Below, piece by piece: positions 19,265 to 37,153 of a DNA stretch of 64,000 bases. Under the pieces are notes generated by a model, which saw only the letters and a list, made by a program, of their open reading frames with translations, did not search any database and had not been told where the DNA came from. The DNA comes from a candidate division WOR-3 bacterium (GTDB lineage Bacteria > Hydrothermota > UBA3072). Made by a program: the position numbers and the translations under genes. Where the stretch lies: contig JAGLZA010000024.1 of assembly GCA_023131835.1 (NCBI GenBank), positions 2,377-66,376 on the forward strand, given 5' to 3'. Numbering within the stretch: the stretch's first letter is position 1; every line of letters starts with the position of its first letter.

Positions 19265-20041
19265 TTATTTCTTATGCAAAGGATAATGTTTTGGTCTAGG
19301 ATGAAAAACAGGTTTTTTAACAGGGAATTTGGTAACCAGTTTAGTAGGTTTTTTAGTGGGTAATTTAGCAGGTGGTTTATAAGATACTTTTGCTTTAATT
19401 ATTGCTTTCTTTTCTCTTAACATAATTGGTTTCGGTTTTGGTTTTTTAACTTCCTTAGGTTTTACTTTCTGCTCCACTATCTTCGCTCTTTTCATTATTT
19501 GTTTAAGTGCATGTGTTTTCGCTATTCCCTCAACTTGCCATCTACCTGTCTCTCTTATAACAAGTCGGCGTTGCGGCTTTTCGAGATAACCCCAATTATG
19601 GGAAATAAAATTATATTCCCTATCCTCTAATTTTCTGTAGCCTACTGCTTCTATCTTTGAAAAAATAAATTCTTGTCTTGTGCTTGGAGACATAACATTC
19701 CAATACATATTGACCCAATGTGTAATTGGTTTTTTTTCTTGGAGACTTTTGTATTGTTGTTGTAATGACCGTGCATATTTCCCTTCTGGATATTTCATAC
19801 CTGCTGTACTATATGTTCCTCGTAGTTTTGCTTGCTCAGCAGGAGAATAAAAGTCCCATTTACTGAGTGTTCCACTAAACCCTGAACTACGTAGTGCATT
19901 TAATATAGCTTTACTTATCTGTTTACTGGATTCTACTTCGTACGACGGAACGCTTTTCCATCCTCCATAATCTCCTACTTGTATCCATTCCTTCCTTAAA
20001 ATACCTCTTCCTCGTGGATAAACCACAGATACTCTACCCAT
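19265..20041 (-). CDS. Hypothetical protein with a lysine/proline-rich basic C-terminal tail (258 aa), co-transcribed with the 1521-aa gene.
   Basis: ORF ends 5 nt before the giant gene's start. The tail reads KPKEVKKPKPKP...KKPTKLVTKFPVKKP. Confidence 0.55.
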   Translation of the reverse strand: MGRVSVVYPRGRGILRKEWIQVGDYGGWKSVPSYEVESSKQISKAILNALRSSGFSGTLSKWDFYSPAEQAKLRGTYSTAGMKYPEGKYARSLQQQYKSLQEKKPITHWVNMYWNVMSPSTRQEFIFSKIEAVGYRKLEDREYNFISHNWGYLEKPQRRLVIRETGRWQVEGIAKTHALKQIMKRAKIVEQKVKPKEVKKPKPKPIMLREKKAIIKAKVSYKPPAKLPTKKPTKLVTKFPVKKPVFHPRPKHYPLHKK

Positions 20042-20071
20042 TTTTTTTTTCTTTTCCTCCTAAATTTTTAC

Positions 20072-20431
20072 CTATACTGCAACTATCCAATGACTAAAAT
20101 ACTTCTCAAAATGGTCTCTACCTATCTTCGAGCCGATTCTATGGTACGATTTACACTTTCTACAATAATATTTGCTTTCTGCTTTAACATCTAACGGTAT
20201 TCTTCTTTTTTTCATTTCATTTTGCCTCTTACTTACTTTCTCCGCTCTTATTATCGCTTCTAATTCGATTTCCGGTAAGATACGTTTATACTGCCGTTCC
20301 ATCTTTCTTCGCATTGCACCAATCTCCCTTTCAGTTACTATCATATTTCCTACTTCAGGGACTTTTGATAATTGTTCATAGATAGTACTATGACTTGTTC
20401 TTGATTTTCTTTTTGTTTTCTTTTTTATCAT
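20072..20431 (-). CDS. Basic hypothetical protein (119 aa) with CxxC pairs.
   Basis: ORF from the track. The AGGAGGTC RBS lies in the palindrome GACCTCCTAAATAAGAGGT. Confidence 0.45.
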   Translation of the reverse strand: MIKKKTKRKSRTSHSTIYEQLSKVPEVGNMIVTEREIGAMRRKMERQYKRILPEIELEAIIRAEKVSKRQNEMKKRRIPLDVKAESKYYCRKCKSYHRIGSKIGRDHFEKYFSHWIVAV

Positions 20432-20554
20432 TTATACGAGAAGACCTCCTAAATAAGAGGTAGAAACATCGGTTTCACAACATATGCATCCTGATTACAT
20501 GTTTACCCTTATCCACCATGGTACAAGCGTAAACCCCAAAAGAAAGAATGATTG

Positions 20555-21019
20555 TCACTCTTCTTCTAAGGCTTCTTCCTTTTCTGGCGGTGTTTCACCC
20601 TTGTTCAAATACACACCTACCAAGTTAGTTATTAACTCGACACCCGTATCTATTGCATCCGCCTCCGCACCTGTTAGTTCAAACCGTTTAAGATTGTTTA
20701 GTAATGCAGCTTGTCCTGAAAGACTATATATAGCTTCTTCTAACGAAGGTTCTACAGGTTCTTCTTCATCTAAGGGTTTTTTTACCTCTTCTACTTCCTT
20801 AACTGGTGGTTTTTCACCTTTATGCTCTTTTCTAATATGCCATGATAATTTCTGAGCATTTTTAAATGGTTCACCACAGAAACCACAAACGTATTCTTTT
20901 ACTTTTGGTTCTTCCACCTCAACATCTTCTCCTTTTAAGTACGCTTTTTCTTTTTGCTTGATTTTTTCTTCTAATAACTCGTCTTCTGTCTTAATCTTAC
21001 GTCTACCTCTTATTTTCAT
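20555..21019 (-). CDS. C2H2-type zinc-finger protein with acidic flanks (154 aa).
   Basis: YVCGFCGEPFKNAQKLSWHIRKEHKGEKP is a canonical C-x2-C-x12-H-x4-H finger. Confidence 0.6.
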   Translation of the reverse strand: MKIRGRRKIKTEDELLEEKIKQKEKAYLKGEDVEVEEPKVKEYVCGFCGEPFKNAQKLSWHIRKEHKGEKPPVKEVEEVKKPLDEEEPVEPSLEEAIYSLSGQAALLNNLKRFELTGAEADAIDTGVELITNLVGVYLNKGETPPEKEEALEEE

Positions 21020-21026
21020 ACTCTTT

Positions 21027-21185
21027 TTACCTTCTTTTCCTCTTCTTTTTTGGTACTAACTCCTTAGCACTTTTTGCTATATCTCCTAATCCCTCTCCTA
21101 CACCTTTGCTTAGCTCCTCTGGTGTATAGTCCTTATCAATTCCTACTTTCAATTTTCCAAAGATATTTTTTTGCTTTTTTTTCAT
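21027..21185 (-). CDS. Small basic protein (52 aa).
   Basis: Hand translation gives MKKKQKNIFGKLKVGIDKDYTPEELSKGVGEGLGDIAKSAKELVPKKKRKRR. Below the track's size threshold. Confidence 0.3.
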   Translation of the reverse strand: MKKKQKNIFGKLKVGIDKDYTPEELSKGVGEGLGDIAKSAKELVPKKKRKRR

Positions 21186-21248
21186 GTTTTATGCCTCCAT
21201 TTTTAATTTAGTTCTATACGTATATAAACTTTTTTGTTCAAAGGGTCA

Positions 21249-35143: not shown

Positions 35144-35151
35144 TTCTTTCA

Positions 35152-35364
35152 TTATCTTTTTACGCCTCCTATTATCCATAAGATAATTAACATAAAAAAT
35201 ACCAAAGTAATCATTGTACCTAATATCGAAATCCAAGTATTAGGATAGAAATATACACCTAATATTCCAGGCATAAATATCAAAATAACAAAACCTACAC
35301 CCTTAACTAAGTCTAACAATGTTGCTGGCTCATCGCTTGGTTCATATCCTATAACACATCTCAT
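35152..35364 (-). CDS. Small two-TM membrane protein (70 aa).
   Basis: ORF from the track. The CCTCCTAT leader motif lies upstream. Confidence 0.45.
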   Translation of the reverse strand: MRCVIGYEPSDEPATLLDLVKGVGFVILIFMPGILGVYFYPNTWISILGTMITLVFFMLIILWIIGGVKR

Positions 35365-35366
35365 TT

Positions 35367-35933
35367 TTATCTCTTCTTCCTCCTATTAAAAATTCCCCTT
35401 GCTCCTCTTTCCTCTGGCACAGCAGGACGCAGCGTCTGTTGGGTGCTCTCCATACGCTGGGTCTGCCAAAACGCTCTCTCTTTGGCGTTCAAGGCGCGGG
35501 GCAATTTTACATCCCCCTTGTGCGAGATTAACTGAAGAATCCTATAAACAATAGGATCGATACCTTCAGGTAGTTCAAGCAGTATGTAACTATCTACGAT
35601 TCGCTTGTTATCTAACAAAAGGTTTAACCATGCCATTCCAGGTATGTTACCATAAACACACTCTGGATCAATAAACGTCCTCGCATGTCTCATTAGCTTC
35701 TCCGCTTCATCTGCATTTAGCTTACCCGTGTCATACGCTCGCTTTATCTCTGTCTCTATACTCTGTAAAACTTCATCGAACTGGGTAGTTTGCTGGATTA
35801 ATCGTATGCCTTCACCTTCGTAACTAACCGACGGTTGTTTTATGTCTAGTGGTCCACCTTCTGCAGGTTCAGACATTACTTCGTCTTCTTCCTCTTCTTC
35901 AAGTTCTTCCTCTTCTGTTTCTTCTTCCGACAT
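35367..35933 (-). CDS. Hypothetical protein with a poly-Glu N-terminus (188 aa).
   Basis: ORF from the track. No recognisable domain. Confidence 0.5.
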   Translation of the reverse strand: MSEEETEEEELEEEEEDEVMSEPAEGGPLDIKQPSVSYEGEGIRLIQQTTQFDEVLQSIETEIKRAYDTGKLNADEAEKLMRHARTFIDPECVYGNIPGMAWLNLLLDNKRIVDSYILLELPEGIDPIVYRILQLISHKGDVKLPRALNAKERAFWQTQRMESTQQTLRPAVPEERGARGIFNRRKKR

Positions 35934-36051
35934 TTTATGGTCCTTAATAAAAATTGTATTAAATACCTCTATGTGTTATTTTTCAGATATGTTTAGGTAT
36001 TTAAAGGTTTCGGTTTGAGGGGCTATTCATTAGGAAGGAGATTGGGAAGTA

Positions 36052-37005
36052 TTAACCTTTTTTAGTTTCCTTCTTTGGTAAAAAGCATACACCGTCTGTT
36101 AGATATTCCAAACTTATGGTGAAGAACTCTTCCCAGTATTCACGGTCTTTAAGTGTCTTTGCGTGGCAACTTCTGCATAGGGGTACAAAAAGAGGCTTTA
36201 CATCATTGCAGCAAACCATTTTATCATAATTGACATGATGTACGTCGAGTTTACGTCCGAGTTCACTTTGTCCAACTCCGCATACGTAGCAACAACCGTT
36301 GAAAAAATCACGGACTCGTTCTTTGAGATCATCATCAAATTTTTCGCAGTACAGTCCAAACGAGATACCACCTTGCCATACAGGACTTTTTTCACCTGAC
36401 ATACCATACATATGGTTCTTTTCTCCTCTTTGAGATTCACCACTTTTATTTGCAACTATTGGATCTTTCATAGGATTTTTATCAGATGACATATAATCAC
36501 TACGATTTTGTCTAAATTCTATACTACTCATTGCCTCACTATGATTCTTTCTTATTATAGGATTACTCATAGGATTATTTTCACCTTTCATATTTTCAGA
36601 CCGCTGTTGCATAAACTTTATACCGTCCTCTGTTTGATAAAACTCCAAAAGAGAACCGCTCATTTTCTTTTTTGTATCCTCAGATGCTTTTAATCCTAAA
36701 TGATCCTCTCTAAGTTTCTCCCTTTGTTTTATTCCTTCTTCTGTTTCAAAAAATTCTTTTTTTGTTATACTTAAAGTTTCTCCATACTTCTTTACTCTAT
36801 TATCTGTCTCTTTTGTTTTACCAACATTCCATGGTTTTCTACCCTTCATTGAACCACTATGTTTCTGGTGTGACTCATCACTAACCATTTTTACATTAGG
36901 AAACCTTACCTTATATTCGTCATAGGTAATATTATGTGTTCTTAGATGATTCCCTGTAATACGATTAAATTCCTTCCCACAAATTAAACAAACCACTTTA
37001 CTCAT
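36052..37005 (-). CDS. HNH homing-endonuclease-like protein (HNH-3), first gene of the long minus-strand block.
   Basis: N-terminus VCLICGKEFNRITGNHLRTHN. NPM..P NUMOD3-like repeats follow. C-terminal CCYVCGVGQSELGRKLDVHHVNYDKMVCCNDVKPLFVPLCRSCHAKT. Confidence 0.8.
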   Translation of the reverse strand: MSKVVCLICGKEFNRITGNHLRTHNITYDEYKVRFPNVKMVSDESHQKHSGSMKGRKPWNVGKTKETDNRVKKYGETLSITKKEFFETEEGIKQREKLREDHLGLKASEDTKKKMSGSLLEFYQTEDGIKFMQQRSENMKGENNPMSNPIIRKNHSEAMSSIEFRQNRSDYMSSDKNPMKDPIVANKSGESQRGEKNHMYGMSGEKSPVWQGGISFGLYCEKFDDDLKERVRDFFNGCCYVCGVGQSELGRKLDVHHVNYDKMVCCNDVKPLFVPLCRSCHAKTLKDREYWEEFFTISLEYLTDGVCFLPKKETKKG

Positions 37006-37153
37006 ATATCTTTTCGAACTTCTCTATGTCTCCTTTTTTCACTATAATTACGTCTGAACCTATCCAATCACGGTCAACAATTACTGCTATCGTTCTACCT
37101 ATCTGTTTCACCTTTCCCTTTTTATAATCTTCTCCTTTTAGCTCGTATTTATA
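36998..37153 (-). CDS. Small protein (51 aa) overlapping the HNH-3 start by 8 nt.
   Basis: Hand translation gives MYKYELKGEDYKKGKVKQIGRTIAVIVDRDWIGSDVIIVKKGDIEKFEKIYE. The RBS is weak. Confidence 0.3.
   Translation of the reverse strand, partial: YKYELKGEDYKKGKVKQIGRTIAVIVDRDWIGSDVIIVKKGDIEKFEKIYE

Follow-up and report, generated by a model that had tools for sequence, protein, structure and literature searches.

The 64,000-nt stretch of DNA analysed here (the window; contig JAGLZA010000024.1 of assembly GCA_023131835.1, deposited as a candidate division WOR-3 bacterium) is almost wholly coding on the minus strand and has a low G+C (GC) content of 0.30-0.40. Our subject is positions 19265-37156, where 30 minus-strand open reading frames (ORFs) follow each other with very short gaps. 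Against Pfam and PHROGs these ORFs gave only zinc-finger and NUMOD3/ROS_MUCR matches and a few sub-threshold ones, and for nearly all the proteins of the module Pfam, PHROGs and NCBIfam returned practically nothing. Many of the products are very basic, with isoelectric points (pI) of about 10 and 22-33% lysine plus arginine. On balance, we think that the conserved part of this region (20555-37156) is the virus-like morphogenetic and structural core, related to that of spindle-shaped viruses, of a circular archaeal replicon of about 191 kb.

A preliminary description of the same DNA had seen here a dense one-strand run of ORFans with no housekeeping function, and most of its inventory was borne out. 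The lysine-rich proteins, the zinc-ribbon and C2H2 proteins, the small proteins with two transmembrane segments (by hydropathy scan), the P-loop NTPase (30973-31872) and the nucleases, three of them inside the region, are all present. Both of the paralogous pairs that it had named are genuine: 24170-24349 and 30334-30501 (33% identity, E 1e-8), and 24368-24673 and 24726-25040 (33% identity, E 5e-19). The gene 30334-30501 may start at position 30501, the earlier start at 30489 being an internal ATG that other gene callers choose as well. Only the supposed winged-helix protein at 29761-30120 found no backing in Pfam or the PDB.

A circular extrachromosomal replicon of about 190.7 kb contains the window in its entirety. 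Scaffold_9 (ENA, sample SAMN18200501; 180,060 bp) ends with 1,960 bases that are those of the window from position 1960 to 1, and its first bases are those of the window from position 12645 upward, in both cases at 100% identity. The 10,684-bp gap between its ends corresponds to window positions 1961-12644, which hold a nuclease gene, the gene for a 2518-amino-acid (aa) protein and a second nuclease gene. This gap is bridged by the window's own 72-kb contig and, independently, by scaffold_256 from another sample, which overlaps the ends of scaffold_9 by 9,446 bp (99.99% identity) and 8,948 bp (100%). We inspected about 84 kb of the replicon, and within these 84 kb there was no tRNA, rRNA or housekeeping gene; the genes are crowded together in one direction and are for the most part tiny ORFans, accompanied by auxiliary genes for surface proteins and glycans. 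Neither the window nor any related locus contains a tRNA; Rfam scans returned no family in the window and no rRNA in the window or in loci L091, L095, L004, L005 and L011. In the 10 kb upstream of the oligosaccharyltransferase gene aglB there are 36 same-strand ORFs of 31-218 aa, almost devoid of Pfam matches. Large viruses and other extrachromosomal elements are organised in this way, a chromosome bearing an island is not, and we regard it as very likely that the DNA is extrachromosomal.

Exact matches to the ATPase of the region, or matches of 88-93% identity, were obtained only from contigs of one study, PRJNA707313, which concerns Site-F, a cold seep of the South China Sea (PMC9357000), and a word-index homolog search with the same protein gave two near-identical clusters only. 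In four diverged sister contigs (L004, L005, L008 and L009) the core is collinear with that of the window at 50-93% amino-acid identity. In the window and in three of these sisters (L005, L008 and L009) the module adjoins the same divergent island, followed by a radical-SAM/glycosyltransferase cluster. The archaeosortase-like protein has 13 homologs, all 65-100% identical, and the module stands next to them wherever the neighbourhood could be read. On the left, synteny with L005 stops after the 154-aa zinc-finger gene (20555-21019), and the 119-aa and 258-aa genes (19265-20431) have no counterpart at that position in L005. The conserved core is 20555-37156, and 19265-20431 belongs to the variable zone. 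On the right the region ends at a 200-bp divergent intergenic region (37157-37356).

A more distant relative is L011, a 53.5-kb contig of GC 0.43 from the same seep, which bears a diverged ATPase (P0019, 33% identity). Its gene order is a 190-aa acidic protein, a 252-aa bitopic membrane protein, a 142-aa and a 146-aa protein and then the ATPase, after which come many small membrane proteins, a 348-aa basic protein, a 100-aa helix-hairpin protein, two lysine-rich paralogs and a giant protein. The two 252-aa proteins match by tblastn (E 5e-15, 29% identity), and the 142-aa protein of L011 aligns with the 123-aa protein that occupies the same position in the window (hhalign E 3e-5, probability 73%). 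The 348-aa protein (L011:16112-17158) matches residues 715-946 of the 1211-aa protein of the window (E 7e-6), and the 100-aa hairpin matches the window's hairpin family (hhalign E 3.5e-4). Weaker matches join the 190-aa protein to the positionally equivalent 188-aa protein (hhalign E 0.012) and the window's 142-aa protein to L011 (E 0.021). No nuclease gene was found in L011. Since this contig keeps the order of the core in the absence of nuclease genes, the core is an ancient unit, conserved by vertical descent.

The signature gene of the module (30973-31872, minus strand) encodes a P-loop ATPase with an N-terminal C2H2 zinc finger. When it was compared by tblastn with about 50,700 phage and virus records, the only one to match at the sequence level was LSV-48N (PP151251), a lemon-shaped virus of Haloferax (PMC12714723), through its 317-aa ATPase (E 4e-6, 32% identity). 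The alignment spans most of the length and takes in the Walker A, Walker B, GKMY and PxP motifs. In other respects LSV-48N is unlike the replicon: it has 24.9 kb, integrases and a halophilic host, and shares no other gene with it save for a generic Ig-like match to the giant gene 14694-19259 (E 1e-5). An exhaustive HMMER search returned 1,286 representatives of the ATPase family at E<=1e-3. Among the top 45 relatives, 32 match phrog_5484, which is labelled 'DnaA-like replication initiation protein', and 13 match Pfam Zot; the ATPase of the window has no Zot match of its own, nor did it give a significant match in a PDB sequence search.

The AlphaFold2 model of the ATPase has a pLDDT of 88.6. 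In a Foldseek search of predicted viral structures the best full-length match was ORF286 from Acidianus two-tailed virus (ATV; E 4e-9, 236 columns), together with four unnamed proteins of similar size, followed by Zot of Inoviridae (about 1e-6) and a protein of a Nitrosopumilus spindle-shaped virus (1.7e-5). The model lacks a C-terminal transmembrane anchor and has instead a beta-rich domain and a long C-terminal helix. The nearest characterised members of this family come from lemon- or spindle-shaped archaeal viruses, and with its matches to LSV-48N, ATV ORF286 and phrog_5484 the replicon carries the conserved P-loop ATPase of spindle-shaped viruses. The protein may serve in DNA packaging, in extrusion or in the initiation of replication.

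An Inoviridae-like element was also considered. Such elements have genomes of 5-20 kb that encode a pI/Zot ATPase, single-transmembrane coat proteins of 30-90 aa and a rolling-circle Rep. The pI/Zot proteins carry a C-terminal membrane anchor, unlike the ATPase of the window, which has neither a transmembrane segment nor a Zot match; no Rep was found in the window, and the replicon is 10-30 times larger than inovirus genomes. The possibility was rejected on these grounds.

Two adjacent paralogous genes (24726-25040 and 24368-24673, minus strand) encode helix-hairpin proteins of 101 and 104 aa, which are candidate major capsid proteins. Each has two hydrophobic segments in a hydropathy scan, and an AlphaFold2 model built on two sequences consists of two long helices (pLDDT 71). 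The paralogs have in common an ..NKKG|VSI.. N-terminus and a proline after helix 1, both conserved, and there are two copies of the gene in L004, two in L005 and one in L011. A 112-aa protein of L004 was tried as a third paralog and discarded, as it has no transmembrane segment. The pair resembles VP1 and VP3 of the spindle-shaped virus SSV1, which we treat as a lead only. The spindle viruses of ANME-1 (anaerobic methanotrophic archaea of group 1) have been described as possessing 'highly hydrophobic alpha-helical MCPs' (major capsid proteins), with dual capsid proteins in the Itzamnaviridae (PMC9894754). By their size, topology and duplication the hairpin proteins are consistent with a putative role as spindle-virus capsid proteins. 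We also observed that their ..K(K/A)G|hydrophobic N-terminus resembles a class-III signal, and that L011 has a 132-aa fragment of a prepilin peptidase (Peptidase_A24; L011:12208-12606) amid its small membrane proteins. Proteolytic maturation of the candidate capsid proteins is possible.

The remaining genes of the core, all on the minus strand, begin with that of a basic 52-aa protein (36998-37156), which is 69-80% identical in L004/L005 and is present in L008 and L009. The 188-aa protein with an acidic N-terminus (35367-35933) is 85-97% identical in four variants. Three membrane proteins follow: one of 70 aa (35152-35364), whose gene is called in L008 and L009 as well, one of 123 aa (34865-35236), both of these with two hydrophobic segments, and one of 252 aa (34105-34863) with a transmembrane segment at each end and the motif VKFxPD...GxKIINYY, which is 72-92% identical in the variants and is a core gene of the wider family. 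Also conserved are a second 123-aa protein (32743-33114; 57-89% identity in the variants), an acidic 142-aa protein (32312-32740; 80-89%) and a 138-aa protein with several zinc-ribbon CxxC pairs (31869-32285; 88-91%), the stop codon of the last overlapping the start of the ATPase gene. Beyond the ATPase lie a 55-aa acidic protein (30334-30501), which is the paralog of the 59-aa acidic protein at 24170-24349, and the 119-aa basic protein that had been taken for a winged helix (29761-30120; pI 10.6, 57-72% identity in the variants).

Gene 26139-29774, which sits within the region, encodes a proline- and lysine-rich protein of 1211 aa with a DxDxDG motif at its N-terminus and (PVTP)x10 in its C-terminal part. 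Only the two ends of this protein are conserved in L004 and L005. Its residues ~715-946 contain a motif like that of Pol-beta-type nucleotidyltransferases (YGSAA...DIDIEV...DVHP). The motif YGS..., DIDI(E/A)V, D(V/I)HP is common to the 1211-aa protein and the 348-aa protein of L011, and Pfam detects it in neither. The PVTP repeats are encoded by a perfect tandem repeat of 12 nt x 10.2 (26341-26463). We looked at whether its copy number varies between samples, and the apparent difference turned out to be a 100-N scaffold gap in the other assemblies.

Toward the left end of the core a block of small and mostly very basic proteins of 87, 101, 111, 200, 57, 58 and 270 aa (21397-24159; pI 9.5-10.2) is partly conserved in L004/L005. 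Its 270-aa member has the DxDxDG N-terminus too, and in an all-against-all comparison this motif was what the N-termini of 21397-22209 and 26139-29774 had in common. The last genes conserved across the variants (20555-21185) encode a 52-aa basic protein and a 154-aa acidic C2H2 zinc-finger protein (zf-C2H2, 8.7e-5), with 70-76% identity in L004/L005. The two very basic proteins of 258 and 119 aa that come next (19265-20431) already lie in the variable zone.

Six nuclease genes of two families, here called types A and B, are found in the window, three inside the region and three outside it, all of them on the minus strand. Type A is represented by 36052-37005 (Pfam ROS_MUCR 2e-6, NUMOD3 3.7e-6) and, outside the region, by its paralogs 2262-3083 and 10908-11774. 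These proteins combine a ROS/MucR-type finger and NUMOD3 repeats (significant, 4e-10 to 8e-5) with a C-terminal HNH-like motif, CxxC...HH...N...CxxCH, for which the database matches are weak (DUF968 0.005-0.009, IscB HNH 0.79). Type B comprises 33117-34094 (NUMOD3 7.7e-5; PDF...IEILGDYWH), 25044-26114, which is 44% identical to it, and 13437-14654 outside the region. In these a pair of CxCGCGG zinc knuckles is joined with NUMOD3 and, at the C-terminus, with a putative PD-(D/E)XK domain of the Vsr/DUF559 kind that has the motif PDF...IE(I/L)xGDYWH. The catalytic domain is weakly matched in the copies of the window (DUF559 0.028, Vsr 0.18, DUF790 0.016), and a 282-aa nuclease gene of L008 carries a recorded DUF559 match. 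PDB sequence searches with the nuclease domains of both types gave no significant match.

The positions of these genes differ between genomes that are otherwise collinear. A nuclease gene lies between the 252-aa and 123-aa genes in the window and in L008, between the 123-aa and 142-aa genes in L004 and between the 188-aa and 252-aa genes in L005; the type B gene 33117-34094 is shifted by one gene in L004 and is missing from this position in L005. At the place corresponding to 25044-26114, the nuclease gene stands between the two hairpin genes in L005 and after them in L004, and depending on the variant nuclease genes precede, follow or separate the giant and hairpin genes. The gene at the 36052-37005 position has another domain make-up in L008, L004 and L005, and in the relatives taken together two N-terminal modules are recombined with two catalytic modules. 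With such a polymorphism among the window, L004, L005 and L008, and with their absence from L011, the NUMOD3 nucleases are read as behaving as would be expected of selfish, free-standing homing endonucleases. They share with the NUMOD3-containing homing endonucleases of phages (I-HmuI-type HNH and I-TevI/Seg-type) the NUMOD3 repeats, the free-standing intergenic genes and the polymorphism, to which type A adds its putative HNH-like motif. They differ from them in their N-termini (ROS/MucR finger or double CxCGCGG knuckle), in the PD-(D/E)XK domain of type B and in the recombined N- and C-terminal modules seen in relatives. Homing endonucleases at such a density are typical of viral genomes.

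The divergent region to the right of the core contains a palindrome (37186-37240) with arms CTATAAATACTTTTA / TAAAAGTATTTATAG, which in the window form a perfect 20-nt inverted repeat (37186-37205 / 37221-37240). Across five variants (the window, L004, L005, L008 and L009) the arms stay the same, while the spacer changes. We infer that the palindrome consists of two inverted archaeal promoter elements of the BRE/TATA type (B recognition element and TATA box), one driving the core leftwards and the other the plus-strand island rightwards.

This island (37357-40154, plus strand) encodes two small membrane proteins, a Big_7 protein that ends in a PEF-type C-terminal sorting signal, a 67-aa protein and an archaeosortase/exosortase-family protein of 307 aa. 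The last remains below the cut-off of every subfamily, archaeosortase B coming closest (64 bits, cut-off 150). PEF, a hydrophobic helix and a basic tail form the C-terminus of two secreted proteins (SPEFSTIMM..., SAPEFNMMG...) that lie beside the 307-aa protein (window 38138-38890 and 39231-40154; L005:870-2060). The element may carry a new sortase/signal pair.

To the left of the core extends a variable zone of surface proteins (2262-19259, minus strand), with giant secreted proteins, small membrane proteins and three nuclease genes. The giant proteins (3092-10648 and 14694-19259) start with a signal peptide and are anchored in the membrane by C-terminal segments; DUF2341, Ig-like and CarboxypepD_reg domains occur in them. 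Over its residues 1751-2013 the 2518-aa giant protein (3092-10648) is 56% identical to residues 34-296 of a 460-aa protein encoded at 40384-41766, and the C-terminal membrane region of the latter is found again in L005. Modules of surface proteins thus appear to have been exchanged within the element.

A cluster of more than 24 kb for glycan biosynthesis (40384-64000, continued in L083/L091) follows the island, and with a GC of 0.319 it is the sole part of the window that differs in composition. Its radical-SAM members are several B12-binding enzymes and one radical-SAM/SPASM enzyme; with them come four glycosyltransferases of the GT4 family, methyltransferases, epimerases, a DegT aminotransferase, a flippase of the MATE type and a FemAB-like protein. 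Upstream of it are genes for asparagine synthase, UDP-glucose dehydrogenases and AglB. The asparagine synthase has 637 aa, and an NRDD fragment was also found on the replicon.

The AglB of the replicon matches that of Archaeoglobus fulgidus at 3e-89, with eukaryotic STT3 next, and the search gave no match to bacterial PglB. Its closest named relatives, at 45-57% identity, belong to ANME-1 (Ca. Methanophaga, Methanospirareceae, Methanophagales) and to Syntrophoarchaeum. Together with the TATA-like palindrome and the PEF-type signals, AglB shows the element to be archaeal; an origin in a WOR-3 bacterium is ruled out by this archaeal protein, and the NCBI label 'candidate division WOR-3 bacterium' (locus tags KAW18_*) stems from mis-binning of the contig. 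The taxonomy of the DegT aminotransferase was uninformative, the best matches being 35% identical and from mixed phyla. Tentatively, we suggest as host an ANME-1-related archaeon of the South China Sea cold seep. An AglB of 76% identity was also observed on a 9-kb contig of JGI metagenome 3300009136 (Ga0118735_10001200; L101), where its neighbours are, as on the replicon, Rce1-like, DegT, GFO_IDH, Hexapep and UDP-glucose dehydrogenase genes. As this is a different data set, the lineage of the element is not confined to the South China Sea study.

At its left end the window holds the 3' part of a MoxR-like ATPase gene (1-1063, minus strand; winged helix-turn-helix and AAA_5), which runs off the window and encodes 365 aa in full. 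On the full replicon this gene is followed by that of a 632-aa protein with a VWA domain, the pair being located at window 1-1063 and L095:899-4310. Beyond window position 1 there are the rest of the AAA_5 gene, the VWA protein, an IscB-like gene with a HEARO RNA, and tiny ORFs. The IscB-like protein has 456 aa with RRXRR and HNH domains, and the HEARO (omega) RNA precedes and overlaps its gene (Rfam RF02033, 112 bits, E 3.5e-22). Together they are an OMEGA-type locus for an RNA-guided nuclease (L095:5625-7068, ~3.7-5.1 kb beyond window position 1). Inside the window, positions 1430-2260 are an ORF-free stretch of 830 nt with an AT-rich segment and a 22-nt near-repeat at 2086-2127. Rfam found nothing convincing in 1430-2260 and the z-score of its RNA fold was -2.4; the stretch may serve as a replication origin or as a promoter region, or may encode an RNA.

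If the core is indeed virus-like, its parts may be imagined to work together in the following way. Transcription would run leftwards from the BRE/TATA element in the palindrome 37186-37240. The 70-, 123- and 252-aa membrane proteins, together with soluble proteins of 188, 123 and 142 aa, would form an assembly platform at the cell membrane, where the zinc-finger P-loop ATPase could power the loading or extrusion of the genome, while the pI-10 proteins and the nucleotidyltransferase-like protein of 1211 aa might bind and condense the DNA. The two hydrophobic hairpin paralogs would polymerise into a capsid lattice, in the manner of SSV1 VP1/VP3 and of the two capsid proteins found in Itzamnaviridae. 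Decoration of the virions or of the infected cell's surface may fall to the giant secreted proteins, to AglB and the glycan cluster, and to the archaeosortase/PEF pair. Finally, the six NUMOD3 nucleases would cleave the nuclease-free alleles of co-infecting relatives, and recombinational repair would copy the nuclease genes in.

The replicon has several features in common with the large spindle-shaped viruses (Bicaudaviridae such as ATV, the monocaudaviruses SMV1/STSV, and the ANME-1 families Itzamnaviridae and Tepeuviridae), which have circular dsDNA and among which ATV supplies, with ORF286, the nearest ATPase. The hairpin pair provides candidates for the two paralogous hydrophobic alpha-helical capsid proteins reported for Itzamnaviridae, with no capsid homology at the sequence level. 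The MoxR-like AAA_5 and VWA pair of the replicon mirrors p618 and p892 of ATV (MoxR-like AAA and VWA), which are implicated in the extracellular development of its tails (PMC4124505). This evidence is weak because the same pairing occurs in phages (phrog_249, phrog_1576; CobS/CobT-like) and in cells. For ANME-1, Laso-Perez et al. described spindle-shaped and head-tailed viruses in which the structural arm is conserved, the enzymatic arm varies and multigene insertions occur, and NrdD and asparagine synthase genes have been reported in these viruses (PMC9894754). Our replicon likewise has conserved structural and variable enzymatic parts, an NRDD fragment and an asparagine synthase.

Several observations weigh against a relationship with spindle-shaped viruses. 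The replicon, at 191 kb, is about 2.5 times as long as the largest genomes of spindle viruses in the papers cited (PBV144, 72.6 kb, PMC9894754; ATV, 62 kb, PMC4124505), the large spindle viruses as a group having at most about 73-76 kb. It differs from them in having its own AglB, a gene of the archaeosortase family and a glycan cluster of 24 kb, all more typical of cells and megaplasmids, and in its many homing endonucleases and a GC of about 0.33-0.35. No polymerase, Rep, integrase, portal or terminase was seen in the ~84 of 191 kb. The helix hairpin is a common fold and no capsid protein was identified by homology: the hairpin profile matched neither PDB sequences nor any LSV-48N protein, and Foldseek with the hairpin model retrieved generic hairpins only (best E 1.3). 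Scans of IMG/VR, JGI metagenomes and GTDB genomes with patterns from the ATPase, the 252-aa family and P0019 found no relatives; the broad ATPase alignment was too divergent to serve as a source of such patterns. Moreover, the link to the host is drawn from one gene, that of AglB.

These points lend some weight to a non-viral explanation, in which the replicon is a megaplasmid and the core a membrane-bound system for surface appendages, DNA transfer or vesicles. Its components would be a Zot/VirB4-like ATPase, pilin-like hairpins with a class-III-like ..KKG|hydrophobic N-terminus, bitopic proteins and giant adhesins, and the neighbouring glycosylation and archaeosortase genes would remodel the host surface. 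A circular replicon of 191 kb with genes of cellular type (AglB, the glycan cluster, an archaeosortase family protein) fits this, as do the prepilin peptidase fragment among the small membrane proteins of L011, the fold of the ATPase, which is equally near Zot and VirB4-type ATPases, and the failure of Foldseek to identify a capsid fold. Nevertheless, over its full length the ATPase is structurally nearest to proteins from spindle-shaped viruses and not to those of secretion systems, and VirB4/VirD4, relaxase and PilB/PilC-type genes are absent from the Pfam results for the core. Typical of viral genomes, too, are features seen here: tiny same-strand ORFans, numerous proteins of pI 10 and free-standing homing endonucleases, six in this case. 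We therefore consider a megaplasmid of this kind unlikely, while keeping it in view as a serious alternative to a virus-like core.

Among extrachromosomal elements the Borgs and the large plasmids of Methanoperedens also come to mind, as they are alike in their low GC, their unidirectional ORFan-rich genes, their surface and glycosylation genes and an in-frame tandem repeat. Borgs are linear, with long inverted terminal repeats and pervasive perfect tandem repeats, have 0.6-1.1 Mb and belong to Methanoperedens. The replicon differs from them in being circular, of 0.19 Mb and marine ANME-1-like, and there is a single perfect tandem repeat in 64 kb; a Borg-like element was accordingly rejected.

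It might be objected that the circle and the synteny are artefacts of assembly, produced by chimeric joins at the repeated nuclease genes. It is true that the nuclease paralogs are repeated, that contig breaks are frequent close to them and that other assemblies have a scaffold gap in place of the tandem repeat. The paralogs, however, are only 60-83% identical in DNA, and over short stretches, and scaffold_9 ends outside the nuclease genes, at position 1960 in non-coding DNA and at 12645 inside a gene that is not repeated. Two assemblies from different samples contain the same bridge at 99.96-100% identity, and such an artefact is very improbable.

The preliminary description had spoken of a virus- or plasmid-like accessory region lying between giant genes, and it is a little less credible still that a cryptic provirus or genomic island of ~18 kb is inserted in a cellular chromosome between genes of giant surface proteins. 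The density of ORFans, the nucleases and the virus-like ATPase would suit an island, and the virus- or plasmid-like character was upheld; the accessory character was not. No integrase domain was found in a Pfam search of the window proteins, no att-like direct repeats flank 19265-37156 in a repeat search, and there is no tRNA that could be a target, in agreement with the earlier statement that integrase and tRNA are lacking. GC is 0.353 within 19265-37156, 0.354 in the zone of giant genes on the left and 0.353 in the plus-strand island on the right, so that there is no compositional boundary at either 19265 or 37156. The same nuclease families reach as far as position 2262, the right end is the putative divergent promoter of 37157-37356 and not a giant gene, and the module is present in every relative with a readable neighbourhood. 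In addition, the surrounding DNA closes to a 191-kb circle with no housekeeping genes in the parts inspected. Conserved synteny, which could be taken as a sign of ordinary chromosomal genes, was found in the relatives, yet these look like sister elements and not like chromosomes, and for this reason the synteny argues for the core of an element and not for cellular housekeeping. An accessory insertion flanked by host DNA is not supported: the idea was right in spirit and wrong in scale and kind. The least credible reading of all, which takes the DNA for a piece of a DPANN-like archaeon's reduced chromosome, the archaeon being an ultra-small symbiont whose lineage-specific genes only seem to be ORFans, could call on the low GC, the giant surface proteins and the synteny among relatives, and founders on a length of 191 kb, far under any known cellular genome, on the lack of translation and RNA genes in ~84 kb and on an AglB that groups with ANME-1/Halobacteriota proteins.

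To go beyond a virus-like core and propose a genuine lemon- or spindle-shaped virus of ANME-1-related methane-oxidising archaea, with a genome of ~191 kb, its own oligosaccharyltransferase and a glycan and archaeosortase/PEF system, is a bolder step, and we put it forward as an attractive possibility that falls short of being probable. Whatever its nature, the 72-kb contig of a 'WOR-3 bacterium' is really an archaeal extrachromosomal element and constitutes an error in the database. The analysis also defines a compact conserved module (the 188/190-aa, 252-aa and 123/142-aa proteins, the ATPase, the nucleotidyltransferase-like protein and the hairpin proteins) and an ATPase family with more than 1,000 metagenome representatives, which is usable for finding such elements. 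The modular NUMOD3 nucleases with their swapped domains offer what appears to be a clean natural case of domain shuffling among archaeal homing endonucleases. Should the replicon prove viral, the consequences would be wider. The capsids of spindle-shaped viruses are thought to scale with genome length, and this one would stretch their size range and test how far the design can go. It would have one of the largest genomes among archaeal viruses, and would be a virus of methane-oxidising archaea with a complete toolkit for protein glycosylation and protein sorting, building glycosylated, lipid-anchored proteins for its virion or for the surface of its host.

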